A DNA stretch of 19,113 nucleotides, from positions 1 to 19,113 of IMG/VR virus record IMGVR_UViG_2648501299_000003; one strand, given 5' to 3'. A program made the position numbers and the translations under genes. The notes beneath the pieces were generated by a model. The model worked only from the letters and a program-made list of their open reading frames with translations. It was not told the origin of the DNA and did not search any database. Positions within the stretch are counted from its first letter, which is position 1; every line of letters starts with the position of its first letter. Shown piece by piece: positions 3,655-18,228 of the stretch. Source of the stretch: a virus (taxonomy: Duplodnaviria > Heunggongvirae > Uroviricota > Caudoviricetes).

Positions 3655-3733
3655 GAATATCTCCTTCGTTACCGATTAATTCTTTCATCTGACGAATGAA
3701 TTCTTCGTCTGACCAGTTATCTGTAAAGATCAT
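3563..3733 (-). CDS. small hypothetical protein (56 aa), 3' part overlaps 3484..3654
   Basis: ATG 3733-3731 overlaps the kil stop (ATGA coupling); N-terminal half looks protein-like, C-terminal half is low complexity. Confidence 0.35.
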   Translation of the reverse strand: MIFTDNWSDEEFIRQMKELIGNEGDIHVTCNHSEGEQVTETHVHAAGVNVSPEGRS

Positions 3734-3882
3734 TTCCTGCGATACAACGGAAGGTTGATAGCTGATTTCATCGCTTTATTTGCTTCAAGCCACATTTTGG
3801 AATCACCAATAAATCTGGCTATTACTGCTTTGTTCTGTGCAGCACGAAGCATCTGGTGATTAATGGCTATTTCATTGCGCAT
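3730..3882 (-). CDS. kil: Kil-like host cell division inhibitor (50 aa)
   Basis: MRNEIAINHQMLRAAQNKAVIARFIGDSKMW resembles recalled lambda Kil core (...IATFIGDEKMF...); GAGG 7 nt upstream of ATG 3882; sits immediately downstream of cIII as in lambda. Confidence 0.55.
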   Translation of the reverse strand: MRNEIAINHQMLRAAQNKAVIARFIGDSKMWLEANKAMKSAINLPLYRRK

Positions 3883-3998
3883 AATAAGACCTCAACTCTT
3901 TTCCATCCGTCACGTAATTTACGGGTGATTCGTTCAAGTAAAGATTCATTTAGTTGGAAGGCACCCATGCGAGCGCCTCCCGCGATTGCGTAAATCAT
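3867..3998 (-). CDS. cIII: CIII-like FtsH inhibitor (43 aa)
   Basis: MIYAIAGG...ESLLERITRKLRDGWKR matches the recalled conserved core of lambda CIII; AAGGA 7 nt upstream of ATG 3998. Confidence 0.75.
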   Translation of the reverse strand: MIYAIAGGARMGAFQLNESLLERITRKLRDGWKRVEVLLCAMK

Positions 3999-4022
3999 GG
4001 GTGGTTCCTTATGTTGGTTTTA

Positions 4023-4991
4023 TTAGTAGGTTATTTTTGTTGCGAATACTTCGCCTTTTACGATGGCTGTTATGATATTTTTAGCAACATCTTCTGATGC
4101 GCCAACCTTGATAAGGTCAGCAAGTATTTTGTTATTTACTTCTTTCCGGTGAGCTTTATCCTTTGCTCTACGCTCTTCTTCGTCCTTGATTCTTTTTTCT
4201 TCTGCTATTCTGGCTTGCTCTTTTGCTTCAGCCTCGCGCCGGATTCGTTCAGCCTCCTCCTGTGCTTTTCGGCGTTCTGCTTCAATTGCCGCCTGCTTTT
4301 CTCTTTCAGCTCGTTCTGCTGCCTCTTTTGCTTCGCGCTGTGCTCGTTGCTCGGCTTCAATGCGTTCACGCTCTGCACGTTCCGCTGCGGCCTTAGCTTC
4401 TGCTTCTCGCCTTGCTGCTGCTTCAATTTCGGCTTTTGCCTTTGCTTCGGCTTCTGCTCTGGCTTTCTCTTCAGCTTCTCTTTTTAAGCGTTCTTCATGC
4501 TCTCGCTTTTCCTGCTCCGCTTTGAGTCTTGCCTCTTCTCTTTGGCGGTCAAATTCGCGATCCATCAAAATCGCTATTTCATGGTCAGACTCAATTTGCT
4601 TTGCGAGAGCTTCAGCTGCGGCCTTAGCTTCTTCTTCGGCTTTAATCCGTGCCTGTTCCTCCTCATAATCAGTAAGAGGCTGGCGCGCCTTGGCTTTCAG
4701 TTCATCAAGGCGATCGCGCACTGTCTTGCGGTTGGCATCAATTAGCTTTGGAATTTCCTTCAGTTCAGCAACAAGGTCTTTGCCAAGACCATCGAGATAT
4801 GTTTTCGTCTGCGCAACTTTATACGCCAGAGAAGCGATCTCCTTTCTGCCCTTTGCCGTTGTGATATCAGGCACAAAGGACATAACTTCTCGTTCAACCT
4901 TTTGGAGAATTTCTTCAATCTGGTCGGCAGACTGAAATACAGTCATTGCATTTGCTTTTTCAATAACAACTAAATCTGTTACTTCACTCAT
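4023..4991 (-). CDS. coiled-coil protein with long E/A/K/R-rich low-complexity repeat region (322 aa)
   Basis: ATG 4991-4989 with GGAGGA 3-4 nt upstream; N-terminal about 100 aa and C-terminal about 45 aa look globular, flanking about 180 aa of EAEAKAKAE/ERAERE-type repeats. Confidence 0.7.
   Translation of the reverse strand: MSEVTDLVVIEKANAMTVFQSADQIEEILQKVEREVMSFVPDITTAKGRKEIASLAYKVAQTKTYLDGLGKDLVAELKEIPKLIDANRKTVRDRLDELKAKARQPLTDYEEEQARIKAEEEAKAAAEALAKQIESDHEIAILMDREFDRQREEARLKAEQEKREHEERLKREAEEKARAEAEAKAKAEIEAAARREAEAKAAAERAERERIEAEQRAQREAKEAAERAEREKQAAIEAERRKAQEEAERIRREAEAKEQARIAEEKRIKDEEERRAKDKAHRKEVNNKILADLIKVGASEDVAKNIITAIVKGEVFATKITY
4180..4560. repeat. degenerate short tandem repeats (gcttc/gcctc/tgctt-type) encoding the E/A/K/R repeat tract
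   Basis: Visible periodic nucleotide repetition; both antisense frames are open here (track ORFs 4149..4487 and 4186..4668), a signature of low-complexity repeats. Confidence 0.6.
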
Positions 4992-5003
4992 ATATCCTCC
5001 ATC

Positions 5004-5032
5004 AAAAAAATTGCCCTCACACTGGAGGGCAA
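5004..5032 (-). terminator. intrinsic terminator inside the leftward operon (tL-like)
   Basis: Minus-strand hairpin, 8-bp stem 5011-5018/5025-5032 (UUGCCCUC-CAGUGU-GAGGGCAA), followed by UUUUUUU (5010-5004), then the RBS of the 4023..4991 gene. Confidence 0.65.
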
Positions 5033-5166
5033 AGAAGATTTCCAATAATCAGAACAAGTCGGCTCCTGTTTAGTTACGAGCGACATTGCTCCGTGTATTC
5101 ACTCGTTGGAATGAATACACAGTGCAGTGTTTATTCTGTTGTTTATGCCAAAAATAAAGGCCACCA

Positions 5167-5418
5167 TCAGGCAGCCTTGTTGTAAATGTTGCAGGTATCA
5201 AGTAAGTAATTAGATGGAGCGCCATAAACTATGAATTCATCGTTTGTCGGGTCCATCTCCATCTCTTGGCCTATTGCCATTCTTGCGTCAGTGTCATCAG
5301 AGGCGAAGCATAAAACAGCCCACGCACCCATTGTTTTAAAAAGAACTGCAATTGGCTGTGGTTTTACTGAATTTGCGTTAGCGCGAAAATCACAAATCGC
5401 ACTTTCATGAAACTCCAT
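5167..5418 (-). CDS. hypothetical protein (83 aa)
   Basis: ATG 5418-5416 with GAGG 6 nt upstream. Confidence 0.55.
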   Translation of the reverse strand: MEFHESAICDFRANANSVKPQPIAVLFKTMGAWAVLCFASDDTDARMAIGQEMEMDPTNDEFIVYGAPSNYLLDTCNIYNKAA

Positions 5419-5480
5419 ATCTCACCTCAAATAAGTGGTTTGCTGCCAAAACAATGAACCATCCGGAAATTCCAGATAGT

Positions 5481-5705
5481 TCATAATTCACCCTTCAATA
5501 CTTCCAACTTACTAATCGCCGATAGATATCCGCGCTGATAGGGCATCATCATTCCTTCGAGCTTGCCACTTCTTAACTCCTCCCTGAGCAATTGTATTGC
5601 TTGATCAATAACCTCTGCCTTAGCGTCCTTTATGGCTTGCTTGCGGGGCTTTGCTTTCTGCTTTGGCAGATTTCTCAAGCATGATGGAATGTATGTCTTA
5701 TTCAT
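5481..5705 (-). CDS. hypothetical protein (74 aa) immediately downstream of N
   Basis: ATG 5705-5703 with GAGG 6 nt upstream, 3 nt after the N stop; track ORF starts one codon earlier at GTG. Confidence 0.55.
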   Translation of the reverse strand: MNKTYIPSCLRNLPKQKAKPRKQAIKDAKAEVIDQAIQLLREELRSGKLEGMMMPYQRGYLSAISKLEVLKGEL

Positions 5706-5708
5706 CAC

Positions 5709-6092
5709 TTACCTCGCCGTCAGTTGTTTGGATTTCCGGTAGCCTGCCGCGTAAAGAGCTACATTTGGAAGACACACACCAGTTTCTGGTTGCTTATGTC
5801 CAAACTCATTCGCGTACACAATGGCCGCTCTCTCCAGATTGCGTCTGTATTCTTTCTGTTGCCAGATCACGTCCTGTGCCATGAACTTAATTGGCTTAGC
5901 GTCTTCTATGCGCTCAGGCGTTTCGTGAGTACCTTTAGCCTGAATCTGCGCTCTGCTTAGAGTAGGGCGGTGTAATACTTCTGAACTTATTGCTTCTTCG
6001 CGGGCCAGTACGCCGTTAGCTAATGCCTTTGCCTTTAAACGCTCACGACGACGAGAACGTGAATTGCCTTTGAACTGAGTTCTGCGTGTCAT
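5709..6092 (-). CDS. N: N-type transcription antitermination protein, P22 gp24-like (127 aa)
   Basis: Arginine-rich motif near N-terminus (GNSRSRRRERLKAKALANG) and C-terminus LPNVALYAAGYRKSKQLTAR resembling recalled P22-type N; ATG 6092-6090 with AGGAGG 5 nt upstream; boxB lies upstream on the same strand. Confidence 0.75.
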   Translation of the reverse strand: MTRRTQFKGNSRSRRRERLKAKALANGVLAREEAISSEVLHRPTLSRAQIQAKGTHETPERIEDAKPIKFMAQDVIWQQKEYRRNLERAAIVYANEFGHKQPETGVCLPNVALYAAGYRKSKQLTAR

Positions 6093-6220
6093 ATAGACCT
6101 CCTGGTGAACTTTGGCGGTGAATACAGCCGGGCGACTAACTCCGGTCGCGTAATCATTGCAAAGCGCCTCCGCCGAGAAGATTAGCTTCTGCATTCACCC
6201 CAAAGTTCACTTTGGTTATT

Positions 6221-6235
6221 GCGCTTTGTCAGCGC
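6221..6235 (-). promoter_or_regulatory. nutL boxB hairpin (P22 type)
   Basis: Minus-strand reads GCGCTGACAAAGCGC, a 5-bp stem with GACAA pentaloop, identical to the recalled P22 boxB; about 60-75 nt downstream of the predicted pL start; no canonical boxA (CGCTCTT) found nearby. Confidence 0.7.
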
Positions 6236-6303
6236 CGTAGATTCATATTCGAATCGTTGTATATTCACCGCCCTGGTGAGTAGTGCGTCCTGCTGATGGC
6301 TAA

Positions 6304-6332
6304 ATAGTACGATGTGTACTTTATTGAGTCAA
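6304..6332 (-). promoter_or_regulatory. pL-like early leftward promoter
   Basis: Minus-strand -35 TTGACT (6332-6327), 17-bp spacer, -10 TACTAT (6309-6304); overlapped by candidate operator dyads. Confidence 0.5.
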
Positions 6333-6378
6333 TACAAAATGTTCTAAATATGATTAGTTTTTTATAACGTTTTGTATT
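6306..6378. promoter_or_regulatory. candidate OL operators (three 15-bp dyads)
   Basis: AGTACgatgtGTACT (6306-6320, perfect dyad), AATACaaaatGTTCT (6331-6345), ATAACgttttGTATT (6364-6378); share half-site ANTAC-N5-GTANT with the OR candidates. Confidence 0.5.
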
Positions 6379-6509
6379 TTATGGAGTTATATTTTGCATG
6401 GTTGTGTGGCTTGGGAGGTGATCGAGAGATCTGAATTGCTATGTTTAGTGAGTTGTATCTATTAATTTTCAAATAAATACAATTGGTTATGTGTTTTTTT
6501 GGGGGGGTT

Positions 6510-6541
6510 AGGCAAAGAAAACCCGGCGCTGAGGCCGGGTT
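6510..6541 (-). terminator. intrinsic terminator ending the cI-cargo (pRM-side) transcription unit
   Basis: Hairpin with 8-bp stem 6520-6527/6534-6541 (AACCCGGC-CUCAGC-GCCGGGUU) followed on the minus strand by UUCUUUGCC. Confidence 0.6.
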
Positions 6542-6550
6542 ATGTAGGCA

Positions 6551-6652
6551 TTATGCGGCTTTTTTGGTGTGTGCTGACGAGCGAGCCAGAATCTCGTTAA
6601 TGAGAGATCTCAGGGTCATTGCATCTTTGTGCAGAGTGGACATGGTTTTCAT
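6551..6652 (-). CDS. small ORF (33 aa) between the cargo gene and the terminator
   Basis: ATG 6652-6650 with GAGG 7 nt upstream; MKTMSTLHKDAMTLRSLINEILARSSAHTKKAA; stop is 9 nt upstream of the terminator hairpin; below track cutoff. Confidence 0.4.
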   Translation of the reverse strand: MKTMSTLHKDAMTLRSLINEILARSSAHTKKAA

Positions 6653-6721
6653 TGCGTTTCCTCGGTTTATTTTATGGTACTAGCCTAGTTCAAATAGACT
6701 ATATGAAATCTTGATTTACTA

Positions 6722-7102
6722 TTAAGGCCATTGGGTTGGTGGAAGATCGTGGGTTTTTATCTGCGTATTTGCTTCCACACATTTATCATAGTCTAATTTC
6801 TCTACAGCAAGCAATAGTGATTCAGCATACATCAATCCTTGTTTGATGTTCATAACATTTATGCTTGCACTTGCGGCATCCATATCCTTTGCTGTCTCTA
6901 CCATGTGCTCAAAGCTTTGAGCAATAGAGTCAACACCGTTTTTCATCCTTGTAAACACTAATTTTAGCTCATCAAGGCTTGGATTCGTTAGATCATACAT
7001 CCCATGCATTCCATGGGCTTCGAATAACTCTGACAACGATCTAAGGGCGAAGTTCACAGAATCAATAACTTGGTCGTACTTTTTCTTATCAAGATCATTC
7101 AT
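6722..7102 (-). CDS. immunity-region cargo protein of unknown function (126 aa), rexAB position
   Basis: ORF directly downstream of cI on the same strand in a visibly AT-rich segment; no recognisable motif or TM segment; weak SD. Confidence 0.6.
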   Translation of the reverse strand: MNDLDKKKYDQVIDSVNFALRSLSELFEAHGMHGMYDLTNPSLDELKLVFTRMKNGVDSIAQSFEHMVETAKDMDAASASINVMNIKQGLMYAESLLLAVEKLDYDKCVEANTQIKTHDLPPTQWP

Positions 7103-7168
7103 TAAAAATATAACCTTTTAACTATTTGATATTGCTGCATTTATATCAATATATGCATTTCACATATA

Positions 7169-7828
7169 TCACCCAAACGTCTCTTCAGGCCATTGACTGG
7201 CGATAACCTTGCCTACAATGTTGCAGTTCTCATTGCATGGGATGATTGGAAACTGCGGATTAAGTGGTTGCAAAAACACTTGCCCACTATCTTTGATCAG
7301 TTTTTTGAATGTGAATTCATCGCCACCAAGTCTAGCGATACAGAAATCACCAGGATCAACAGGTTGTTCAGGGTCAACCAAGATTAACATTCCATCAGGA
7401 AAGCTTGGTTTCGATCCTGCCGGAGCTGTCATTGAGTTGCCTTCAACCTCAAGCCAGAATGCAGAATCACTGGCTTTTTTAGTTGTGCTTACCCATTTCT
7501 CCGCATCACCTTTGGTAAAGGTTCTAAGCTCAGGCGAGAACATCCCGGCCTGAACATGAGAAAAAACAGGGTACTCATATTGTTTTTTAACGGGGGCTGA
7601 TGAGTATTCGCCAACAGGTGAAAATGTACCGTCGTGGTTGAATGAGACGTTATTAATACCAAGGTACTTAAACACCACACCAATCTCGTCAAGAGATGGA
7701 TGACGAGATCCGCGCAACCAGTGGCCAATTCCACCCTGCGTCATACCAAGCTCTTCAGCTAACTTCTCTTGAGTTATGCTGAGTTCTTTCATTCTGGATC
7801 TAGCCAGTTCATACCATTTCATTTTCAT
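7169..7828 (-). CDS. cI: CI-type prophage repressor (HTH N-domain + LexA/S24-like autocleavage domain, about 219 aa)
   Basis: C-terminal about 135 aa ([22 protein letters not shown]...GNSMTAP...FTFKKL...[11 protein letters not shown]) nearly identical to recalled lambda CI; N-terminal HTH domain different; start at ATG 7828 (MKMKW) or 7822, upstream TTG-initiated track extension unlikely. Confidence 0.85.
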
Positions 7829-7837
7829 ACCCTCATT

Positions 7838-7912
7838 ATTACGCTCCGTACTAAAACCATCCATGCACAAGATGTATTTTTTCGATTGCATTCCAAAAGT
7901 ACATATCGTATT
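7838..7912. promoter_or_regulatory. candidate OR operators flanking divergent pRM/pR
   Basis: ATTACgctccGTACT (7838-7852) and AGTACatatcGTATT (7898-7912), plus a weaker middle site TGCACaagatGTATT (7864-7878); same half-site family as OL. Confidence 0.5.
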
Positions 7913-7914
7913 AT
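7886..7914 (+). promoter_or_regulatory. pR-like early rightward promoter
   Basis: -35 TTGCAT (7886-7891), 17-bp spacer, -10 TATTAT (7909-7914); overlapped by the 7898-7912 operator; cro RBS GGAGG at 7933-7937. Confidence 0.5.
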
Positions 7915-7940
7915 TGTTTCATGGTTACTATGGAGGGCAT

Positions 7941-8156
7941 ATGAGCAACCTACGAAAATATCGAGAGTCACTGAAGATCTCTCAAACAACCCTTGCTAAG
8001 GCTGTTGGATGCACACAGGGTGCTATCGGACATTGGGAATCTGGTCGTCGCTTCCCAGACCTTAAAACATGCCGTGCTCTTGTTGCGTGCCTAAACAAGT
8101 TCGGCGCAAAAGTCAGTCTTGATGACGTGTTCCCGCCGGAACACCAATCCGCTTAA
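7941..8156 (+). CDS. cro: Cro-like HTH (XRE-family) regulator (71 aa)
   Basis: ATG 7941 with GGAGG 4 nt upstream, divergent from cI; HTH-like QTTLAKAVGCTQGAIGHWESG; track ORF begins at an upstream alternative start. Confidence 0.8.
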   Translation: MSNLRKYRESLKISQTTLAKAVGCTQGAIGHWESGRRFPDLKTCRALVACLNKFGAKVSLDDVFPPEHQSA

Positions 8157-8167
8157 TAAGCGGATCC

Positions 8168-8212
8168 ACTCTTTTCACAATGGACATTCGTCCTACGTCG
8201 CTGACAAAGCGA
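8168..8212 (+). promoter_or_regulatory. nutR: boxA-like element plus boxB hairpin
   Basis: boxB TCGCTGACAAAGCGA at 8198-8212 (5-bp stem, GACAA loop, same loop as nutL); upstream CACTCTTTTCACAA (8168-8181) resembles boxA but the spacer is longer than in lambda. Confidence 0.55.
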
Positions 8213-8296
8213 GCCCCAAGATATCTGACCAACTAAGGCCATATGCGTTTCAACGCATACCTTTCAACTAACTATTCACTATTGGAAAATTAACAA

Positions 8297-8596
8297 ATGA
8301 CACAAGCAAGTTACAGCAAGCCAACACAGCGAGAAATTGATCGCGCAGAAACAGATTTACTCATCAACCTGTCAACGCTTACCCAGCGCGGTCTGGCAAA
8401 GATGATTGGCTGTCATGAATCGAAGATAAGCAGAACGGACTGGAGATTTATTGCTTCGGTCTTGTGTGCTTTCGGAATGGCATCAGACATCAGTCCGATT
8501 AGCAGGGCTTTTAAGTATGCGCTTGATGAAATCACCAATAAAAAACGCCCGGTGTGCAAGACCGAGCGTTCTGAACAAATCCAGATGGAGTTCTGA
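8297..8596 (+). CDS. cII: CII transcriptional activator (99 aa)
   Basis: C-terminus ...TNKKRPVCKTERSEQIQMEF almost identical to recalled lambda CII; gene begins with GCAA-N6-GCAA (pRE site on the opposite strand). Confidence 0.85.
   Translation: MTQASYSKPTQREIDRAETDLLINLSTLTQRGLAKMIGCHESKISRTDWRFIASVLCAFGMASDISPISRAFKYALDEITNKKRPVCKTERSEQIQMEF
8306..8319 (-). promoter_or_regulatory. pRE-type CII binding site (TTGC-N6-TTGC)
   Basis: Plus strand GCAAgttacaGCAA inside the 5' end of cII, the same arrangement as lambda pRE. Confidence 0.55.
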
Positions 8597-8628
8597 GGTC
8601 ATTACTGGATCAATCCACAGGAGTCATT

Positions 8629-8790
8629 ATGACAAAACGTCGTAAGAAATACCAGGAAAAAGAAGAGATTCGACACCCTGATTCACCTGAGGGATTAGTG
8701 GTAGCCGCAGCAAATAACAGGGCGTTCGCAGAGCGCCTTGTTGGTGTTTACAGACTAGCCAAAGCAGGAGTGAAACATGGGCGTCGTTAA
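8629..8790 (+). CDS. small basic ORF (53 aa) between cII and O
   Basis: ATG 8629 with AGGAG 5 nt upstream; overlaps the O start by 14 nt; below track cutoff. Confidence 0.35.
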   Translation: MTKRRKKYQEKEEIRHPDSPEGLVVAAANNRAFAERLVGVYRLAKAGVKHGRR

Positions 8791-9667
8791 GTTAGCTGAT
8801 TACAGGCATAACCCTGTACAACATCAGGAGGCATCCAGTATGGGGTATGTCTCTATACACCGCCAGTTTATGGACAGCAGGCTCTATAAGGACTCTCAGG
8901 CAGTACATCTTTGGCTTCACTTAATCCTCAAGGCTAATCACGAATCTACTGTCGTCAATACGGATATCGGTCCGATAACTGTTGATCGCGGTCAGATGAT
9001 AACTGGACGCCCGTCGCTGGTCAGAGAAACATTCATCCCCGACAACAAAGTTCGGAGCTTATTGCGGACTTTTGAGTCGAAAGGGATGCTTAATATTTGC
9101 TCGATGGGGAAGAAATTTAGCCTGTTTACAATCGTTAAATATGACGATTTTCAGGCAAAAAATTGTCCAACGGTTGTCCAACGGTTGTCCAACGCAAACA
9201 GCAGTAATGGCGCGGCTCTCAGCGGAGATTGTCCAACGGTTGTCCAACGGTTGTCCATAAACAATAATATAAATAATATCTCTAATACTGACGTATTAGA
9301 GAGTGCCACAGCAGACAAAAAGTCTGACAAGAAAAAACCTTCCGTTAGCTGTCAGGATGTTGTCGATGCTTACCACGAAATCCTTCCTGAAGCGCCAAGA
9401 ATCCGCGCACTGAATGACAAGCGTAAAAACCAGATCCGAACGTTCTGGCGCAAAGCCGGAGTGATAACCCGCCAGCTTGACGGGCATGGGTTCACGATGC
9501 AGGACTGGAGAAATTATTTGAGCTACGTAGGCGAAAATTGCCGATGGATGTTCGAAGAGCGCCCAAACCATCAACGCGGAACCGTCTGGCACAAAAAGGG
9601 ATTTGATTTCCTGCTTAACGACAATACCTACCTGAAAGTTCGTGAGGGTGAACACGATGACCGATAA
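8777..9667 (+). CDS. replication initiator, lambda O-like by position and internal iterons (296 aa)
   Basis: ATG 8777 with AGGAG 6 nt upstream; iteron clusters and an AT-rich tract inside the gene, as in lambda O/ori. Confidence 0.7.
   Translation: MGVVKLADYRHNPVQHQEASSMGYVSIHRQFMDSRLYKDSQAVHLWLHLILKANHESTVVNTDIGPITVDRGQMITGRPSLVRETFIPDNKVRSLLRTFESKGMLNICSMGKKFSLFTIVKYDDFQAKNCPTVVQRLSNANSSNGAALSGDCPTVVQRLSINNNINNISNTDVLESATADKKSDKKKPSVSCQDVVDAYHEILPEAPRIRALNDKRKNQIRTFWRKAGVITRQLDGHGFTMQDWRNYLSYVGENCRWMFEERPNHQRGTVWHKKGFDFLLNDNTYLKVREGEHDDR
9162..9258. repeat. origin iterons: two clusters of 11-bp TTGTCCAACGG repeats
   Basis: Three copies at 9163-9195 and about 2.7 copies at 9229-9258; a 30-bp unit (ATTGTCCAACGGTTGTCCAACGGTTGTCCA) is exactly duplicated 66 bp apart; AT-rich tract follows at 9259-9300. 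Confidence 0.75.
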
Positions 9668-11093
9668 TTTTTATGCGCCGCCCCATAGCATCGAGGCAGA
9701 GCAGGCGGTGATTGGTGGATTGCTTCTGGATGATGACAGCAGTGAGCGCGTCCAGAAAGTTCTGGCGATGCTGAAGCCTGATTCATTTTACAGCCGACCA
9801 CACAAAATCATTTTCGAAGAAATAACCAGAATGCACCGGGAGCAAAAGCCAGTAGATGGCCTGACGCTTTTCGATGAACTGGAGCGTAAATCGTTAACGG
9901 CGTCTGTTGGCGGTTTTGCTTATATCGCTGAGATCGCAAAGAACACGCCAAGCGCCGCAAACATCGTTGCCTATGCAATGCAGGTTCGCGAAACCGCAAT
10001 GGAACGCTACGCCATCAACCGCATGACTGAAGCGACGGAATTGCTATATTCCCGCAACGGAATGACTGCAACGCAGAAGTACGAAGCTATTCAGGCGATT
10101 TTCACGCAACTGACAGACCATGCAAAAACCGGATCGCGTCGCGGCCTTCGCTCATTTGGTGAGGTCATGGAAGACTGGGTTAGCGACCTTGAGAAGCGAT
10201 TTGACCCGTCAGGCGAACAACGAGGAATGAGCACAGGGATCCAATCGCTGGACAGGATGCTGTCACCGAAAGGTCTGGTGAAAGGCTCTCTGTTTGTCAT
10301 TGGCGCTCGCCCTAAGATGGGGAAAACGACGCTATACAGCCAGATGGCAATCAACTGCGCAGTGCATGAGAAAAAGCCCGCTCTGATGTTCAGCCTTGAA
10401 ATGCCAGGTGACCAGATACTGGAAAAACTGGTAGGGCAGAAGTCAGGTATTAACCCAAATATTTTTTACCTTCCGGCGACAAATGACGCTGATGACGGTT
10501 ATCAGGGTGATTACGATGGTGACTTCAACAGGGCGATCGAAACAGCCAATCGCTTGAGTGAAATCGACCTGCTTTACATCGACGACACGCCGGGATTATC
10601 TCTGGCTCAAATCGTCAGCGAAAGCCGTCGAATCAAGCGAGAAAAAGGATGTGTTGGCATGATTCTGGTCGATTACCTGACACTAATGACTGCTGAGAAG
10701 GCCGATCGCAACGACCTTGCTTACGGCATGATCACCAAAGGACTGAAGAACCTTGCCAAAGAGCTTGATTGCGTTGTTGTGCTTCTGACACAGCTTAACC
10801 GCGCACTGGAAAGCCGAACCAATAAACGCCCATTACCAAGTGACTCACGAGATACAGGGCAGATTGAACAGGATTGCGATTATTGGGTGGGGATCCATCG
10901 TGAAGGCGCTTTTGATGACAGTGTTCCACCTGGTGAAACTGAACTAATCCTTCGTCTCAATCGTCATGGCAATACCGGCACGGTGTATTGCATTCAGGCA
11001 AATGGCGCTATTTATGACACAGACCAACAGTCTGCTGAAATGCGCCGCCGTGAACGCGAGGAACCGCAGTCCAAGAAGAAAGGAGGATTCTGA
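9657..11093 (+). CDS. DnaB-family replicative helicase (about 478 aa)
   Basis: DnaB N-domain signature (HSIEAEQAVIGGLLL) and Walker A GARPKMGKTT; ATG 9657 with GAGGG about 8 nt upstream, overlapping the O stop; track start 9642 is GTG. Confidence 0.85.
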   Translation: MTDNFYAPPHSIEAEQAVIGGLLLDDDSSERVQKVLAMLKPDSFYSRPHKIIFEEITRMHREQKPVDGLTLFDELERKSLTASVGGFAYIAEIAKNTPSAANIVAYAMQVRETAMERYAINRMTEATELLYSRNGMTATQKYEAIQAIFTQLTDHAKTGSRRGLRSFGEVMEDWVSDLEKRFDPSGEQRGMSTGIQSLDRMLSPKGLVKGSLFVIGARPKMGKTTLYSQMAINCAVHEKKPALMFSLEMPGDQILEKLVGQKSGINPNIFYLPATNDADDGYQGDYDGDFNRAIETANRLSEIDLLYIDDTPGLSLAQIVSESRRIKREKGCVGMILVDYLTLMTAEKADRNDLAYGMITKGLKNLAKELDCVVVLLTQLNRALESRTNKRPLPSDSRDTGQIEQDCDYWVGIHREGAFDDSVPPGETELILRLNRHGNTGTVYCIQANGAIYDTDQQSAEMRRREREEPQSKKKGGF

Positions 11094-11197
11094 TGACCAT
11101 CTACATCACTGAGCTAATAGCAGGGTTATCGTTACTAATGGTTCTTACTGTATATATTATTAAGTATATTCTTTATGCGAATAAAAAAACTAATTGA
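11093..11197 (+). CDS. small hydrophobic single-TM peptide (34 aa)
   Basis: ATG 11093 overlapping the helicase stop (TGATG) with AGGAGG 6 nt upstream; MTIYITELIAGLSLLMVLTVYIIKYILYANKKTN; overlaps the start of the next gene; below track cutoff. Confidence 0.4.
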   Translation: MTIYITELIAGLSLLMVLTVYIIKYILYANKKTN

Positions 11198-11786
11198 TCA
11201 CGATGAGCTTCTGTCAACATTATCATATGACTCAGAAACAGGAATATTTAAATGGCTAAAAACAAATTCAGTAGTAAGAGTAAAAGGTAGTATTGCTGGA
11301 GGTGTTAGTGGTGGTTATATATGCATTAGCATAAATAATGTTTTGTATTATGCGCATAGACTTGCTTGGTTCTATGTATACAAAAAATGGCCTCCTAAGT
11401 TTATTGATCATGTAAATGGGAACAGACTTGACAATAGGATTTCAAATCTAAGACTGGCAACAGAAGAGCAGAATGCAAGAAACATTGTAGGGAATAGATT
11501 AAACACATCCGGTGCAATTGGAGTGTCTTGGTATAAGCCAACTGGCAGGTGGAAGTCTTATGTTGGTTATAAAAATAAGACAATATCGTTAGGGTATTTC
11601 GATAGCAAAGAAGATGCAGCATTCATAGCAGCACTAGCAAGAAAGAAACTATATGGAACTTATGCGAGTAAAGCACTTAATTGCGAGCATGAGCTTTTAT
11701 CTCAATTTAATAATGATGAGGATAAACTTGCGGAATATCTTAAGGAAAAATCTAAAAGGACTCGAAAGCGTGTTAAAAACAGATAA
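11175..11786 (+). CDS. HNH endonuclease with C-terminal AP2 DNA-binding domain (homing-endonuclease-like, 203 aa)
   Basis: HNH motif FIDHVNGNRLDNRISNLRLAT and AP2-like GVSWYKPTGRWKSYVGYKNKTISLGYFDSKEDAAFIAALARKKLYG; gene lies in a strongly AT-rich segment. Confidence 0.8.
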   Translation: MRIKKLIDHDELLSTLSYDSETGIFKWLKTNSVVRVKGSIAGGVSGGYICISINNVLYYAHRLAWFYVYKKWPPKFIDHVNGNRLDNRISNLRLATEEQNARNIVGNRLNTSGAIGVSWYKPTGRWKSYVGYKNKTISLGYFDSKEDAAFIAALARKKLYGTYASKALNCEHELLSQFNNDEDKLAEYLKEKSKRTRKRVKNR

Positions 11787-11820
11787 AGGCCTGCTGGTAA
11801 TCGCAGGCCTTTTTATTTTG
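11785..11820 (+). terminator. intrinsic terminator after the HNH-AP2 gene
   Basis: Stem GGCCTGC (11788-11794) / GCAGGCC (11803-11809), extended by AAA/TTT, then TTTTTATTTT to 11819; starts at the HNH stop codon. Confidence 0.7.
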
Positions 11821-11846
11821 GGGAGAGTAATTGGAGGCTTTAAGAA

Positions 11847-12074
11847 ATGAGTTCGATGACTGAGCTTGTCCGCGCCGACTTTCAGGAGAACATTGGTCGT
11901 GCAAAGCGGTACTGGTCTGCTTCCAGACTTCCGACTGGCGAGAGACAGAAAAACGCCCCTAAGCCACGTATCTATCCGCGTGACCGCGTTCTTCGCCGGT
12001 TGTTCAGACTCAACAATGAGTTTCAGCGCAACAGAATTATCCAGCAATTAGATTTGATGACTGATGATGAATGA
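11847..12074 (+). CDS. hypothetical nin-region protein (75 aa)
   Basis: ATG 11847 with GGAGG 9 nt upstream; overlaps the NinB start. Confidence 0.5.
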   Translation: MSSMTELVRADFQENIGRAKRYWSASRLPTGERQKNAPKPRIYPRDRVLRRLFRLNNEFQRNRIIQQLDLMTDDE

Positions 12075-12489
12075 TTTCATTCTGCACGAAACCAATAAAT
12101 CACAATTCTGGTTAGTTCTGAAACAAATCCTCTCTACTGGCAAACGCTGGCGAATCAAAATATCTGAGTACCGTGAAAAGCGTACATTGTCACAAAACAA
12201 TCTGCTGTGGATGTGGAATGCAGAAATAGCCGCACAGTTATCTGCTGCTTCTGCTGAAAACTTCACGCCTGAAGAGGTTCATGAGTGGCTGAAAGATATA
12301 TTTTGTCCGGCTAAAAGGGTGACGATTTTTAATATTACACGATGCGTTAAATCAACACGTCAGCTTGATATTGGAGATATGCACAAATATCTGACCGATA
12401 TTGACCAGTGGGCGCATCAGAAGGGATTACGACTAACCATTCCTGATAATTGCGAGTACCGGGATCTAAAGGAGAGGCAAGTAGAGTGA
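12064..12489 (+). CDS. ninB: NinB-like recombination protein (141 aa)
   Basis: RTLSQNNLLWMW resembles the recalled NinB SLDQN..LW motif; position at the start of the nin region. Confidence 0.55.
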   Translation: MMNDFILHETNKSQFWLVLKQILSTGKRWRIKISEYREKRTLSQNNLLWMWNAEIAAQLSAASAENFTPEEVHEWLKDIFCPAKRVTIFNITRCVKSTRQLDIGDMHKYLTDIDQWAHQKGLRLTIPDNCEYRDLKERQVE

Positions 12490-13013
12490 CTATCAAATCA
12501 AATACGCCAGCGTCAGATAGGTATCGGCTTATTGAGGATTATCTGTATTTAGACGGAGATACAGTCAGATACAAAAAGGACTCGCTAAAACACCCCAACC
12601 ACAGCCACCGGGCAGGAGATGAAATTAAAACATCGATAAATGGATCTGGGTATAGACAGGTGTGTTTTGCAGGCATTCAGATGTTTGTTCACGTAGTTGT
12701 TTTTGCGCTGCACAACAAAAGAATGCCATTGAAAAATATTGACCATATTAACGGAAACAGGCTGGACAATTCCCCAAAAAATCTTAGGGAGGCAAGCCGG
12801 ATAGCAAACAGCCGAAATCAGAAAACTAAGTGCAATAGCCGTTCTGGAATAAAAAATGTTTTATGGAACAAGCAAAAAAATAAATGGGCCGTTCAAGTGC
12901 GCACAGATTTTGGCCGGTTGTATTTTGGGCTCTATGAAGATCTTGAACTTGCTTGTTTGGTTGCCAGTGAGGCTATCAACAAATATCACGGACAATATGC
13001 GAAGGTTGTATGA
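12486..13013 (+). CDS. second HNH endonuclease with AP2 domain (about 175 aa, GTG start)
   Basis: HNH motif NIDHINGNRLDNSPKNLR and AP2-like GIKNVLWNKQKNKWAVQVRTDFGRLYFGLYEDLELA; GTG 12486 overlapping the NinB stop (GTGA) with GGAGAGG 8 nt upstream; track start 12450 is TTG. Confidence 0.7.
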   Translation: MTIKSNTPASDRYRLIEDYLYLDGDTVRYKKDSLKHPNHSHRAGDEIKTSINGSGYRQVCFAGIQMFVHVVVFALHNKRMPLKNIDHINGNRLDNSPKNLREASRIANSRNQKTKCNSRSGIKNVLWNKQKNKWAVQVRTDFGRLYFGLYEDLELACLVASEAINKYHGQYAKVV

Positions 13014-13540
13014 TTAAGCATAAATCAGAAACACCAAAAGAAGTTAGAGACTGCTGGCAAACTCCGCTTTGGCTTTTTGATGCACTGGATATTGAGTTTG
13101 GATTCTGGCTGGATTCGGCAGCGAGCGACAAAAATGCTCTGTGCGCTCACTGGCTAACTGAGGCCGACGACGCGCTCAATTCTGAGTGGGTAAGCCACGG
13201 TGCAATCTGGAATAACCCACCGTACAGCAATATCAGGCCGTGGGTGGAAAAAGCCGCTGAGCAGTGCATACAACAGCGACAGACGGTAGTTATGCTTGTG
13301 CCAGAGGATATGTCTGTCGGATGGTTCAGCAAGGCTCTGGAGAGTGTCGACGAAGTTCGCATTATCACTGATGGACGGATTAATTTTATCGAACCATCGA
13401 CAGGGCTGGAGAAGAAGGGAAACAGCAAAGGTTCCATGCTGCTGATTTGGCGACCGTTCATCAGTCCTCGACGGATGTTTACTACCGTATCCAAAGCGGC
13501 ATTGATGACGATCGGGCAGGGCGTCAGGAGGGCGGCATGA
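13010..13540 (+). CDS. phage-type DNA N6-adenine methyltransferase (Dam-like, 176 aa)
   Basis: NPPY catalytic motif (IWNNPPYS) and WQTP N-terminal pattern; ATG overlaps the HNH stop (ATGA). Confidence 0.7.
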
Positions 13541-13719
13541 GGCGACAGCGACGAAGTATCACCGACATCATCTGCGAAAACTGCAAATACCTTCCAACGA
13601 AGCGCTCCAGAAATAAACGCAAGCCAATCCCAAAAGAATCTGACGTAAAAACCTTCAATTACACGGCTCACCTGTGGGATATCCGGTGGCTAAGACATCG
13701 TGCGAGGAATACAAGGTGA
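13537..13719 (+). CDS. ninE: NinE (60 aa)
   Basis: [23 protein letters not shown]... matches recalled lambda NinE; ATG overlaps the Dam stop with GGAGGG upstream; lies inside the longer track ORF 13447..13719. Confidence 0.75.
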
Positions 13720-13886
13720 TTGACCCAAATCGAAGTTACGAACAAGAAAGCGTCGAGCGGGCTTTAACGTGCGCTAACTGCGGTCAAAAGCTGCATTTTC
13801 TGGAAGTTCACGTGTGCTCCGATTGCTGCGCAGAACTGATGAGCGATCCGAATAGCTCAATGTACGAGGAAGAAGACGATGGCTAA
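13716..13886 (+). CDS. ninF: NinF (about 56 aa, GTG start; alternative ATG 13674)
   Basis: [46 protein letters not shown] matches recalled lambda NinF; GTG 13716 overlaps the NinE stop with GAGG upstream. Confidence 0.7.
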
Positions 13887-14490
13887 ACCAGCGCGAAGAC
13901 GATGTAAAAACGATGAATGTCGGGAATGGTTTCACCCTGCATTCGCTAATCAGTGGTGGTGCTCTCCAGAGTGTGGAACAAAGATAGCACTCGAACGACG
14001 AAGTAAAGAACGCGAAAAAGCGGAAAAAGCAGCAGAGAAGAAACTACGACGAGAGGAGCAGAAACAGAAAGATAAACTGAAGATTCGAAAACTCGCCTTA
14101 AAGCCCCGCAGTTACTGGATTAAACAAGCCCAACAAGCCGTAAACGCCTTCATCAGAGAAAGAGACCGCGACTTACCATGTATCTCGTGCGGAACGCTCA
14201 CGTCTGCTCAGTGGGATGCCGGACATTACCGGACAACTGCTGCGGCACCTCAACTCCGATTTGATGAACGCAATATTCACAAGCAATGCGTGGTGTGCAA
14301 CCAGCATAAAAGCGGAAATCTCGTTCCGTATCGCGTCGAACTGATTAACCGAATCGGGCAGGAAGCAGTAGACGAAATCGAATCAAACCATAACCGCCAT
14401 CGCTGGACTGTCGAAGAGTGCAGGGCCATCAAGGCAGAGTACCAACAGAAACTCAAAGACCTGCGAAACAGCAGAAGTGAGGCCGCATGA
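13879..14490 (+). CDS. ninG: NinG (Rap-like recombination protein, 203 aa)
   Basis: Near identity to recalled lambda NinG ([10 protein letters not shown]...WWCSPECG...[30 protein letters not shown]...). Confidence 0.85.
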
Positions 14491-14693
14491 CGTTCTCAGT
14501 AAAAACCATTCCAGACATGCTCGTTGAAGCATACGGAAACCAGACAGAAGTAGCACGCAGACTGAAATGTAGTCGCTGTACGGTCAGAAAATACGTTGAT
14601 GATAAAGACGGGAAAATGCACGCCATCGTCAACGACGTTCTCATGGTTCATCGCGGATGGAGTGAAAGAGATGCGCTATTACGAAAAAATTGA
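14487..14693 (+). CDS. ninH: NinH (68 aa)
   Basis: [30 protein letters not shown]... matches recalled lambda NinH; ATGA overlap with NinG. Confidence 0.8.
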
Positions 14694-15336
14694 TGGCAGC
14701 AAATACCGAAATATTTGGGTAGTTGGCGATCTGCACGGATGCTACACGAACCTGATGAAAAAACTGGAGACGATAGGATTCGACACCAAAAAAGACCTGC
14801 TTATCTCGGTTGGCGATTTGGTCGATCGCGGTACAGAGAACGTCGAATGCCTGGAATTAATCACATTCCCCTGGTTCAGAGCTGTACGTGGAAACCATGA
14901 GCAAATGATGATTGATGGCTTATCAGAGCGTGGAAACGTTAATCACTGGCTGCTTAATGGCGGTGGCTGGTTCTTTAATCTCGATTACGACAAAGAAATT
15001 CTGGCTAAAGCTCTTGCCCATAAAGCAGATGAACTTCCGTTAATCATCGAACTGGTGAGCAAAGATAAAAAATATGTCATCTGCCACGCCGATTATCCTT
15101 GTGACGAATACGAGTTTGGAAAGCCAGTTGATCATCAGCAGGTAATCTGGAACCGCGAACGAATCAGCAACTCACAAGACTGGATCGTGAAAGAAATCAA
15201 AGGCGCGGACACGTTCATCTTTGGTCATACGCCAGCAGTGAAACCACTCAAATTTGCCAACCAGATGTATATCGATACTGGCGCAGTGTTCTGCGGAAAT
15301 CTCACATTGATTCAGGTACAGGGAGACGGCGCATGA
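14671..15336 (+). CDS. ninI: NinI serine/threonine protein phosphatase (lambda PPase-like, 221 aa)
   Basis: [25 protein letters not shown]...GNHE... metallophosphatase motifs; start taken at ATG 14671 (track ORF begins at 14596). Confidence 0.85.
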
Positions 15337-15956
15337 GACTCGAAAGCGTGGCTAAATTTCATTCGCCAAAAAGCCCGATGATGAGCGACTCACCACGGGC
15401 CACGGCTTCTGACTCTCTTTCCGGTACTGATGTGATGGCTGCTATGGGGATGGCGCAATCACAAGCCGGATTCGGTATGGCTGCATTTTGCGGTAAGCAC
15501 GAACTCAGCCAGAACGACAAACAAAAGGCTATCAACTATCTGATGCAGTTTGCACACAAGGTATCGGGGAAATACCGTGGCGTGGCAAAGCTTGAAGGAA
15601 ATACTAAGGCAAAGGTACTGCAAGTGCTCGCAACATTCGCTTATGCGGATTATTGCCGTAGTGCCGCGACGCCGGGGGCAAGATGCAGAGATTGCCACGG
15701 TACAGGCCGTGCGGTTGATATAGCAAAAACAGAGCAGTGGGGGAGAGTTGTTGAGAAAGAGTGCGGAAGATGCAAAGGCGTAGGCTATTCCAGGATGCCA
15801 GCAAGCGCCGCATATCGCGCTGTAACGATGCTAATCCCAAACCTTACCCAACCCACCTGGTCACGCACTGTTAAGCCGCTGTATGACGCTCTGGTGGTGC
15901 AATGCCACAAAGAAGAGTCAATCGCAGACAACATTTTGAATGCGGTCACACGTTAG
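15333..15956 (+). CDS. Q: Q late-gene antiterminator (lambda-type, 207 aa)
   Basis: Essentially identical to recalled lambda Q over its length ([24 protein letters not shown]...[12 protein letters not shown]...). Confidence 0.9.
15620..15633 (-). promoter_or_regulatory. candidate paQ CII site (TTGC-N6-TTGC, antisense within Q)
   Basis: Plus strand GCAAgtgctcGCAA inside Q; lambda carries a CII-dependent antisense promoter within Q. Confidence 0.4.
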
Positions 15957-15998
15957 CGGCATGATTGCCACGGATGGCAACATCTTTACGGCATGATA

Positions 15999-16027
15999 TT
16001 GACTTTTTGAATAAAGTTGGGTAAATT
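15999..16027 (+). promoter_or_regulatory. pR' late promoter (qut region just downstream)
   Basis: -35 TTGACT (15999-16004), 17-bp spacer, -10 TAAATT (16022-16027), directly downstream of Q. Confidence 0.7.
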
Positions 16028-16167
16028 TGACCCAACGATGGGTTAATTCGCTCGTTGTGGTAGTGAGATGAAAAGAGGCGGCGCTTACTACCGATTCCGC
16101 CTAGTTGGTCACTTCGACGTATCGTCTGGAACTCCAACCATCGCAGGCAGAGAGGTCTGCAAAATGC

Positions 16168-16227
16168 AATCCCGAAACAGTTCGCAGGTAATAGTTAGAG
16201 CCTGCATAACGGTTTCGGGATTTTTTA
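16168..16227 (+). terminator. tR'-like terminator ending the short pR' leader (6S RNA equivalent)
   Basis: AATCCCGAAAC (16168-16178) pairs with GTTTCGGGATT (16212-16222) around an inner GCAGG/CCTGC hairpin, then TTTTTT (16221-16226); about 190 nt from the predicted pR' start. Confidence 0.7.
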
Positions 16228-16632
16228 TATCTGCACAACAGGTAAGAGCATTGAGTCGATAATCGTGAAGAGTCGGAGAGCCTGGTTAGCCAGTGCTCTT
16301 TCCGTTGTGCTGAATTAAGCGAATACCGGAAGCAGAACCGGATCACCAAATGCGTACAGGCGTCATCGCCGCCCAGCAACAGCACAACCCAAACTGAGCC
16401 GTAGCCACTGGCTATCCTGAACTCATCAGTGATAGTTACGCTGCGGCCTTCTATACATGACCTTCGTGAAAGCGGGTGGCAAGAGGTTGCGCTAACAACC
16501 TCCTGCCGTTTTGCCCGTGCATATCGGTCACGAACAAATCTGATTACTAAACACAGTAGCCTGGATTTGTTCTATCAGTAATCGACCTTATTCCTAAATA
16601 AATAGAGCAAATCCCCTTATTGGGGGTAAGAC

Positions 16633-16956
16633 ATGAAGATGCCAGAAAAAAATGACCTGTTAGCCGCCATTCTCGCGGCAAAGGAACAAGGCATCGGGGC
16701 AATCCTTGCGTTTGCAATGGCGTACCTTCGCGGCAGATATAATGGCGGTGCGTTTACAAAAACAGTAATCGACGCAACGATGTGCGCCATTATCGCCTGG
16801 TTCATTCGTGACCTTCTCGACTTCGCTGGACTAAGTAGCAATCTCGCTTATATAACGAGCGTGTTCATCGGCTACATCGGTACTGACTCGATTGGTTCGC
16901 TTATCAAACGCTTCGCTGCTAAAAAAGCCGGAGTAGAAGATGGTGGGAATCAATAA
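16633..16956 (+). CDS. S: class I holin S with dual-start motif (S107 antiholin / S105 holin)
   Basis: [39 protein letters not shown]... near-identical to recalled lambda S; ATG at 16633 and 16639 (Met-Lys-Met). Confidence 0.9.
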
Positions 16957-17416
16957 TCAACGTAAGGCGTTCCTCGATATGCTGGCATGGTCAGAGGGAA
17001 CTGATAACGGACGTCAGAAAACCAGAAATCATGGTTATGACGTCATTGTAGGCGGAGAGCTATTCACTGATTACTCAGATCACCCTCGCAAACTTGTCAC
17101 GCTAAACCCCAAACTCAAATCAACAGCCGCCGGACGTTACCAGCTTCTTTCACGTTGGTGGGATGCATACCGTAAGCAGCTTGGCCTGAAAGACTTCTCT
17201 CCGAAAAGCCAGGACGCTGTGGCATTGCAACAGATTAAAGAGCGTGGCGCTTTGCCGATGATTGATCGCGGTGATATCCGTCAGGCAATCGACCGTTGCA
17301 GCAATATCTGGGCTTCGTTGCCCGGGGCTGGTTATGGCCAGTTCGAGCATAAGGCTGACAGCCTGATTGCAAAATTCAAAGAAGCTGGCGGAACAGTCAG
17401 AGAGATTGAGGTATGA
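16940..17416 (+). CDS. R: endolysin R (lytic transglycosylase, 158 aa)
   Basis: Near identity to recalled lambda R ([46 protein letters not shown]...). Confidence 0.9.
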
Positions 17417-17850
17417 GCAGAGTAACCGCGATTATCTCCGCTCTGGTTATCTGCATCATCGTCTGCCTGTCATGGGCTGTTAATCATTACCGGGATAACG
17501 CCATGACCTACAAAGAGCAGCGCGATAAGGCCACATCCACAATCGCTGACATTCAGAAGCGTCAACGTGATGTAGCAGAACTCGATGCCAGATATACAAA
17601 GGAACTTGCTGATGCTAACGCGACTATCGAAAGTCTCCGTGCTGATGTTTCTGCTGGGCGTAAGCGCCTGCAAGTCGCCGCCACCTGTGCAAAGTCAACG
17701 ACCGGAGCCAGCAGCATGGGCGATGGAGAAAGCCCAAGACTTACAGCAGATGCTGAACTCAATTATTACCGTCTCCGAAGTGGAATCGACAGGATAACCG
17801 CGCAGGTTAACTACTTGCAGGAATACATCAGGACGCAATGCCTTCGATGA
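17413..17850 (+). CDS. Rz: Rz i-spanin (145 aa)
   Basis: N-terminal TM segment [23 protein letters not shown], coiled-coil remainder, lambda Rz-like; ATGA overlap with R. Confidence 0.85.
17612..17797 (+). CDS. Rz1: Rz1 o-spanin lipoprotein embedded in the +1 frame of Rz (about 61 aa)
   Basis: Lipobox LLGVSAC followed by proline-rich [13 protein letters not shown]; AAGGA 8 nt upstream of ATG 17612 (alternative ATG 17585). Confidence 0.7.
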
Positions 17851-17990: not shown

Positions 17991-18228
17991 GATAAGAGCC
18001 AGTTCATTACAAAGCCTATCTACGGGTGGGCTTGATAATGAAACCGGAATTTATTCTGGGCAACCAGTTACGGCAGTACAGCGAAACAACCCAAGCCAGT
18101 AAGTGGGGAAATAACACTGGCAGCCACTGAAAGATGAACCTCCTGCCTTATGGCAAAAAAGATTCTTTGTGGTTGCGGACTGATGGAAAGACATCCTAAT
18201 CAAGCAACTACTCTACAGGGTCATAATT

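Follow-up and report, generated by a model that had tools for sequence, protein, structure and literature searches.

The intron-encoded nuclease I-HmuI of Bacillus phage SPO1 is a strand-specific nickase. Free-standing homing endonuclease genes (HEGs) have been described in T4-type phages, where mobA, mobC, mobE, segC, and segF are intergenic insertions between conserved genes, sporadic among relatives, and associated with intrinsic terminators, with neither a promoter nor a discernible ribosome-binding site (RBS); half of the T4 free-standing endonuclease genes lack an RBS and overlap the upstream open reading frame (ORF) by 11–24 bp, the overlap of mobA being 23 bp (Edgell, Gibb, and Belfort 2010, PMC2988022). 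A further described group, the HNH-AP2 family (Magnani et al. 2004, cited in PMC10448857; "IPA-HNH" in phage ICP1), has an N-terminal HNH and a C-terminal AP2 domain in a single phage gene; according to PMC10448857, the HNH plus AP2 combination marks an established HEG family, and GC-rich DNA is what AP2 domains prefer. We report here on a 665-bp element situated after the replication helicase gene and before the nin genes of a virus of the Caudoviricetes, in a stretch of 19,113 nucleotides (IMG/VR record IMGVR_UViG_2648501299_000003, positions 1 to 19,113; hereafter the window). We think it likely that this region is a lambdoid ninA/tR2 unit split by a free-standing HNH-AP2 HEG that targets ninA/tR2 and borrows the ninA translation start.

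The element and its kind are already known, and this is not a new system. The HK022 genome deposit contains the same element as genes 56 and 57 (AF069308 32354–33047; named "putative endonuclease" in later records, NP_597900), with an insert (32386–33050) identical to that of the window at 665 of 665 positions, and the Stx phages PA28 (where the gene is annotated as "homing endonuclease"), SH2026Stx1, 1717, and WGPS4/6 have it at 98.8–99.4% identity, with the same mini-ORF and the same junctions. HK022 and the window have the left-flank gene P in common but differ on the right, where the window has a DUF7301 gene. The layout is that of the T4-type genes listed above; these, however, belong to virulent T-even phages and encode zinc-finger (Mob, HNH) or GIY-YIG (Seg) enzymes rather than AP2 proteins, several of them have demonstrated cleavage and homing, activities that are predicted for the window element, and the ORF upstream of the window gene is itself a chimera created by the insertion. 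Pfam HNH_3 does not capture the strongly diverged IPA-HNH domains of ICP1 but clearly includes the window protein, and we found no HNH-AP2 member closer than ~50% identity outside the E. coli phage cluster. What we add is the exact anatomy of the element, with its resident and imported parts told apart, its empty allele, and an isogenic filled/empty pair.

The ninA/tR2 unit, 76–78 nt long, occupies lambda positions 40567–40642, between ren and ninB. The name ninA is an accepted one for the lambda and P22 gene (PMC8022706; PMC4824070), and the annotation of phage Lahn1 (AJ413275) labels the unit "ninA" and "tR2 terminator". The resident ninA is an ORF of 25–26 codons, beginning where the last replication gene stops and enclosing the tR2 hairpin; lambda, P22, VT2-Sakai, and hundreds of further phages have the unit in one piece. 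In the window the same unit lies in two halves, at 11093–11124 and 11790–11827 (the helicase gene, the unit, and the insert with its ORFs are all on the + strand), which match lambda ninA/tR2 at 96–100% identity over the 32 nt before and the ~40 nt after the insert. Its position agrees as well: the ninA ATG shares one base with the stop codon of the preceding replication gene P (TGATG), as it overlaps ren in lambda (ATGA). When the window was compared with phage genomes by megablast, HK022 matched without a break from the helicase gene to 11830, several Stx phages matched only from exactly 11093 on, after quite different genes, and VT2-Sakai, which has the same helicase gene, matched only piecewise. 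In VT2-Sakai the first 32 nt of the window's mini-ORF directly adjoin the hairpin (ATGACCATCTACATCACTGAGCTAATAaCAGG followed at once by CCTGCTGGTAATCGCAGGCCTTTTTATTTGGGGGAGAGGGAAGTGA), and this empty allele is an uninterrupted 25-codon ORF (MTIYITELITGLLVIAGLFIWGRGK) with the terminator inside. The 32-nt head is identical in VT2-Sakai and the window save for the base at position −5 from the junction; lambda has one further difference.

Comparison with relatives lacking the AT-rich island, a check proposed in the first-pass annotation of the window, thus yielded the empty alleles that define the insertion boundaries. Alignment of filled with empty alleles places the mobile insert, of 665 bp and 33.7% GC, at 11125–11789 or, equally well, at 11122–11786; the ambiguity comes from a 3-nt AGG repeat at both ends of the insert, and the second placement ends exactly on the stop codon of the endonuclease gene. 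The insertion point follows ninA codon 11 and lies at the 5′ foot of the tR2 stem. The lambda ninA ORF continues across the hairpin as far as an ATGA overlap with ninB, whereas in the window it is diverted into the insert, and tR2 comes directly after the stop of a 203-codon ORF. The left half of the unit (11093–11124) consists of the ninA ATG plus 10 codons and is preceded by a Shine-Dalgarno (SD) motif, AGGAGG, at 11081–11086, inside the 3′ end of the helicase gene and 6 nt upstream of the ATG; the right half (11790–11827) is, in empty alleles, the 3′ part of the ninA ORF. Because they are contiguous in VT2-Sakai and lambda, the SD, the ATG, and the first 11 codons on the one side and the terminator on the other are the two halves of one resident unit. 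The lambda tR2 intrinsic terminator (11785–11819) comprises a stem-loop at 11785–11812 followed by the U-tract, its hairpin is 96–100% identical to tR2 of lambda, Sakai, and Lahn1, and the endonuclease gene's stop codon TAA (11784–11786) abuts or overlaps its stem. The terminator is intact, since the insertion restores AGG at the base of its stem. At 11819 the window differs from all 18 other complete copies in having T instead of G, so that the U-tract is lengthened from TTTTTATTT to TTTTTATTTT. Beyond the unit, identity of the window's right flank to other phages stops at ~11827–11830, where the right-flank modules diverge.

This anatomy alters the first-pass annotation in several respects. 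The annotation had taken the whole of 11093–11820 for a mobile island with a terminator of its own, and had counted a mini-ORF at 11093–11197 as part of it. The mobile piece is instead the 665 bp at 11125–11789; the hairpin is the resident tR2 of lambda, present in empty alleles; and the SD, ATG, and first 32 nt of the mini-ORF (11093–11124) belong to the resident ninA/tR2 unit. The sharp drop in GC that had drawn attention to the island is real and recovers past the terminator, but it sets in at ~11125, ~32 nt beyond the helicase stop rather than at 11093. In 200-nt windows GC falls from ~0.50 (10700–11099) to 0.31–0.39 (11100–11799) and returns to 0.53 (11800–11999), and by segment it is 0.504 in the helicase gene (9642–11092), 0.337 in 11125–11789, and 0.496 in the next gene (11847–12074). 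The helicase gene itself (9642–11093), the left flank, lies outside the mobile element; it encodes a DnaB-like replicative helicase of the HK022 gene P type (Pfam DnaB_C, 9.5e-61; DnaB, 6.3e-32; 98.9% identity to HK022 P). For existing annotations it follows that the "hypothetical protein" mini-ORFs of the gp56 type are ninA chimeras and that the terminator is resident, not imported.

The reading of the region as a mobile insertion between replication and nin genes is borne out by the existence of empty relatives and by the variety of flanks: rather than appearing with identical flanks in all relatives, the insert is found in 19 of ~421 phage records and in 126 of the 1,777 E. coli genomes that have the site, with many different flanks. 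The ninA/tR2 unit occurs in 421 phage records, in 382 of which it is uninterrupted, and all 19 records with the insert (98.8–100% identity) are Escherichia or Stx phages. Among 5,426 complete E. coli genomes, the unit or the insert occurs at 2,558 places in 1,777; the insert is at 138 places in 126 genomes, at 98.2–100% identity, with a few copies truncated or split. Overall ~5% of ninA/tR2 sites are filled. In IMG/VR the filled junction is present in 17 contigs and the empty junction in at least 120. In a set of one genome per bacterial species the filled junction was not found, and a 32-mer internal to the insert hit only one E. coli contig, which starts inside the same junction. Some E. coli genomes hold the insert at two or three places (up to three per genome), a pattern that either spread from one co-resident prophage to another or lysogeny by several related phages could produce.

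We examined 21 filled alleles in detail (the window, four loci of phage or metagenome origin, and 16 of the 17 from IMG/VR), and the junction is identical in all of them. On its left stand at least six unrelated neighbours (HK022-type P, lambda ren, HK97-type DnaB, Sakai orf28, a Toprim primase-helicase, and one other), and on its right at least five different ones. The copies of the insert are 98.2–100% identical, and the next protein relatives beyond this tight cluster have at most 50% identity, which suggests that the spread of the insert is recent; no true orthologue of the HNH protein at intermediate distance was present in the collections searched. A protein with 62% identity (P0004) was considered as a divergent orthologue by which conservation of the mini-ORF might be judged, and was rejected because its locus is a chimera. 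In that locus (L009, 3919–4516 of a contig from Logan SRR10380363) the mini-ORF and the 5′ part of the HNH gene are base-identical to the window, and the 3′ half of the nuclease comes from a different HNH gene of higher GC that overlaps rusA and has no tR2; from its sequence, the gene looks like the product of recombination between two endonuclease genes.

One filled and one empty relative form an isogenic pair. Over 2,500 nt of left flank, filled locus L140 and empty locus L106 differ at a single base, 5 nt from the junction, and their right flanks are identical for 338 nt. This junction-proximal polymorphism (11119 in the window) recurs throughout: the −5 base is G in 21 of 21 filled alleles and A in 121 of the 122 empty alleles examined, changing ninA codon 10 from Thr (empty) to Ala (filled). 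This linked change may represent a minimal co-conversion tract or a mutation that confers immunity. The lone empty allele with the insert-linked G is IMG/VR locus L088, which also has a mutation in the stem (GCAGGCA) and follows the Toprim primase-helicase flank, behind which the insert is present in other loci; a precise loss may have left it as a footprint, or it may be the allele that first received the insert, or a resistant variant. HK97 gp56 (L007 1501–1599) has the same 32-nt ninA head joined to a different hairpin (GGGCTATTTACACAGTAGCCC followed by a T-run), and the join falls at exactly the same point (ACAGG/G); the junction is therefore a recurrent exchange point. The HK97 variant unit might be a nuclease-resistant allele.

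The ORF at 11175–11786 encodes the 203-aa endonuclease, and its first-pass description as an HNH-AP2 protein of the homing-endonuclease type agrees with profile searches and with a structure model alike. The protein matches Pfam HNH_3 above the cut-off (8.2e-16; residues 58–102, nt 11346–11480) and PHROG 99, "HNH endonuclease" (6.7e-72), and matches Pfam AP2 at 1.6e-6 and 28.7 bits, below the gathering score of 33.3 bits. An AlphaFold2 model built with 42 homologues has a pLDDT of 89.7. By Foldseek, residues ~1–110 of the model match I-HmuI (PDB 1u3e; probability 1.00, 109 columns), and residues ~114–163 (nt 11514–11663) match the plant AP2 domains of TEM1 (7et5; root-mean-square deviation 1.0 Å over 48 columns) and AtERF1 (1gcc; 1.3 Å over 51 columns), both with probability 1.00. 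The AP2 call stands because the model superposes on these plant domains. These domain calls rest on the model and its Foldseek matches, the phmmer search of the PDB by itself being weak (E 0.003–0.35; WRI1 0.0033, TEM1 0.17, and I-HmuI weakly over the HNH motif). The predicted layout is an I-HmuI-like N-terminal sheet and an HNH beta-beta-alpha core, then the AP2 domain, then a basic helical tail. I-HmuI is the best structural match for that N-terminal part and has equivalents of the catalytic His and Asn, but it is intron-encoded, has a helix-turn-helix C-terminal domain in place of AP2, and is only 19% identical. The catalytic residues are intact in the window protein, and H61, D78, H79, N87, N91, and N103 are invariant in the 42 homologues.

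The setting of the gene is that of a free-standing element: it lies between the replication helicase gene and ninB/dam in the early-right operon, the window contains no Rfam family, introns included, and the insert is neither an intron nor an intein, being placed inside the 25-codon ninA ORF, with whose host-protein frame it is in register for 11 codons at most. A packaging-associated HNH protein of the HK97 gp74 type was also considered and ruled out, the gene being beside neither the terminase genes nor a cos site. Of the 17 substitutions among copies of the HNH ORF, eight are synonymous, where chance would give 21.5% (P ~0.017), and in the codons of the catalytic core (52–114) there are eight synonymous changes and one amino-acid change; this excess of synonymous changes lends modest support to recent purifying selection on the HNH core. 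Other copies are decayed. In locus L136 an extra A in the A7 run at 11183–11189 stops the HNH frame after 7 codons, phage 1717 (L005 59–2500) has an ISEc8 in the mini-ORF at about window positions 11124–11134, and some E. coli prophages (hits H140–H142) have 5′-truncated or split nuclease genes.

The mini-ORF that precedes the nuclease gene has all the features first attributed to it, at 11093–11197: 34 residues (MTIYITELIAGLSLLMVLTVYIIKYILYANKKTN), a hydrophobic character, a perfect AGGAGG, coupling to the helicase stop, and overlap with the HNH start. As judged from the empty alleles, it is a chimera made by the insertion, with 11 resident ninA codons followed by 23 insert-encoded hydrophobic codons; we refer to it as ninA′ (annotated as HK022_56). 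Of the reading frames, only the one continuing from the ninA ATG remains free of stops over the insert's 5′ end. The ninA′ TGA (11195–11197) lies beyond the HNH ATG (11175), giving an overlap of 23 nt that contains the A7 run, with ninA′ in the −1 frame relative to HNH and HNH in the +1 frame. The HNH start was said to have no SD of its own, and inspection of the sequence upstream of its ATG indeed revealed no GGAG-like motif. A consensus scan of 10800–13200 found no sigma-70-like promoter on the + strand; its three sites are all on the − strand, and are fewer than in shuffled sequence. As the insert and its surroundings have no promoter-like site on the + strand, its transcription must originate upstream, in the early-right operon.

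Initiation at the ninA ATG, by comparison, appears well provided for. In six unrelated upstream genes (those of the window, L002, L004, L009, L135, and L145), a GGAG-type motif stands 6–10 nt before the ninA ATG and the stop codon overlaps or abuts that ATG, which suggests that ninA translation is kept up across the mosaic. A reporter study of lambda tR2 likewise treats the NinA start as an active initiation site, which mutations of its RBS and AUG silenced (PMC4824070). Together with the layout of the T4 free-standing genes, the arrangement favours, by analogy, coupled translation of HNH. The likeliest route is re-initiation at the HNH ATG after ninA-started ribosomes terminate; weak direct initiation on the AU-rich leader may be an alternative, and +1 slippage may occur at the A7 run in the overlap, HNH being the +1 frame. 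We also considered coupling through the unfolding of an RNA structure that hides the HNH start; this found no support, the RNA around the HNH ATG being less structured than shuffled controls (z = +1.35).

From these observations we infer nuclease activity, a target, homing, and a translation route that would combine as follows. The HEG, having no promoter, would be transcribed within the early-right (pR) operon, upstream of tR2. Ribosomes would start at the resident ninA ATG, served by the SD in the 3′ end of whichever gene precedes it, would read the insert-encoded continuation past the HNH ATG, and would stop 20 nt beyond; a fraction would then re-initiate at the HNH ATG, or passing ribosomes and an unstructured AU-rich leader would permit weak direct initiation. 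Either route would keep nuclease levels low. Should the cell also contain an empty ninA/tR2 allele, on a co-infecting phage or a resident prophage, the nuclease would nick or cut at or near the join of AATAACAGG and CCTGCTGG, and recombinational repair from the HEG-bearing genome would copy the 665 bp together with the −5 base. The insertion would destroy the target, while regeneration of the AGG stem foot would let tR2 survive. The sequence AATAACAGG joined to CCTGCTGG, intact in HEG-less genomes, is split by the 665 bp, its −5 base being changed in 21 of 21 filled alleles, and would be the recognition site; 11093–11124 is probably the left half of the homing site. We place the target in ninA/tR2 because it is the only sequence that constantly adjoins the insert and because the insert splits this unit; the tR2 stem is, moreover, the only GC-rich constant sequence beside the insert. 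We read the element as a HEG because low frequency, near identity of copies, a fixed site, foreign composition, and occasional decay are the usual signature of such genes.

Several points weigh against this reading. Many free-standing phage HEGs cut away from their insertion sites, and the target might accordingly lie elsewhere. Re-initiation 23 nt backward is expected to be inefficient, and the mini-ORF lacks the sequence variation that might test selection on it. In the isogenic pair no co-conversion tract is visible beyond the −5 base. A literature search, which did not extend to the HK022/HK97 genome paper (PMID 10860721), found no paper on cleavage, homing, or a ninA/tR2 site for this gene. 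Furthermore, the conserved halves of the unit, 32 nt and ~40 nt, could by themselves move the cassette through ordinary homologous recombination, so that the distribution does not strictly require an active nuclease. This last point leads to a different account, to which we give a small but real chance: the HNH gene would be a passively exchanged piece of the mosaic, moved only by recombination in the ninA head and tR2 tail, and its nuclease would be idle or otherwise employed, for instance in attack on competitor phage DNA, stimulation of recombination, or exclusion. Lambdoid phages are notoriously mosaic, the flanking linkers are conserved in hundreds of them, module boundaries fall exactly at 11093 and at ~11827, no long co-conversion tract is seen, and domestication of HEG-like HNH nucleases has been discussed for HK97 gp74 (PMC10448857). 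Linkers of 32 and 40 nt are, however, very short for efficient recombination without a break; the association of insert and unit is exact in every copy, with the −5 base linked in 21 of 21; the position is beside neither a terminase nor a Rec module; and a sporadic ~5% frequency, near-identity over unrelated backgrounds, and decayed copies are more in keeping with a selfish element than with a useful gene.

The remaining alternatives to a free-standing HEG in ninA/tR2 concern the peptide and the history of the insert. That the 34-aa ORF is a functional small membrane protein, a variant of NinA whose overlap with the nuclease start is incidental, seems to us improbable. Its best 19-residue Kyte-Doolittle window is 2.19, close to the 2.04 of resident NinA, every left-flank gene provides an SD for its ATG, which the reporter study treats as an active start, and the open-and-hydrophobic outcome in the ninA frame has P ~0.0045 under whole-insert composition. 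Under local shuffles, however, that value is ~0.035, so that hydrophobicity, considered as a sign of function, is marginal once local composition is used, T-rich DNA by itself encoding most of it. In its C-terminal two-thirds the peptide is unrelated in sequence to resident NinA and to the HK97 variant; Pfam gives no match and PHROGs matches only the resident 12 residues; NinA itself has no known function; and the ORF is cut by the ISEc8 of phage 1717 and altered in L136 and L141. The amino-acid sequence of ninA′ is otherwise invariant, in 19 of the 21 filled copies examined, and so holds no informative variation for a test of selection. It is very improbable that the island is ancestral, with the empty alleles produced by precise deletion between the AGG repeats: the repeat, with a wider imperfect similarity (ATA.(C)AGG), might mediate deletion, and L088 with its −5 G is a possible footprint of loss, but empty alleles outnumber filled ones ~20:1, consist of an intact conserved ORF and terminator, and are spread over Salmonella, P22-like, and lambda-like phages, the insert having been seen only in E. 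coli phages, and foreign composition with almost no divergence is incompatible with antiquity. We give next to no credence to a classical moron, that is, an autonomous promoter-gene-terminator cassette benefiting the lysogen; AT-rich composition and a terminator immediately downstream recall one, but the terminator is the resident tR2 of lambda, the gene has no RBS, and the + strand of 10800–13200 yielded no sigma-70-like promoter in the consensus scan.

The window contains a second HNH_3 gene (12486–13013; insert ~12512–13048), between ninB and dam, whose product is 33% identical to that of the first over 129 aa, AP2-like part included. An in-frame fusion joins it to the first 9 codons of the resident dam (GTGACTATCAAATCAAATACGCCAGC, by comparison with PA28 dam), its GTG overlaps the ninB TGA, and dam restarts at 13010 with a different 5′ end and an ATGA overlap. 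This second insert had no DNA match in the phage collection and is present in 34 of the 5,426 E. coli genomes. As read from the dam alignment, the gene, like the first, borrows a resident start codon. More speculatively, start-codon borrowing may be a general rule for RBS-less nuclease genes that colonise the tightly coupled operons of lambdoid phages. An HNH gene fused in frame, N-terminally, to eaE has been described in phage epsilon34 (PMC2629481). Farther upstream in the window, the gene for an O-like replication initiator (ORF 8777–9667) encodes a tandem repeat in which CPTVVQRLS occurs twice (~9170–9290); the repeat is probably the trace of ori iterons lying within the gene, as they do in lambda O.

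The apparent target of the nuclease, lambda tR2, is among the most studied terminators in molecular biology, and natural isogenic filled and empty alleles, combined with the tractability of HK022 and lambda, make homing, target recognition by AP2, and RBS-less coupling directly testable. The insertion may also have a consequence for the phage, although we regard this as a rather unlikely proposal: tR2 would be rewired, and in phages with the filled allele read-through into nin and Q would depend on translation. The tR2 of empty alleles is positioned ~30 nt inside the short ninA ORF, whereas in filled alleles the hairpin begins at the stop of a 203-codon ORF. Li et al. 2016 found that terminators ~30 nt into a short ORF can work efficiently, and that a translated ORF ending ~5 bp upstream cut termination at tR2 from ~90% to <10% (PMC4824070). 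If the proposal is true, expression of nin and Q would be partly independent of the antiterminator, and a selfish element would have a phenotype visible to selection.

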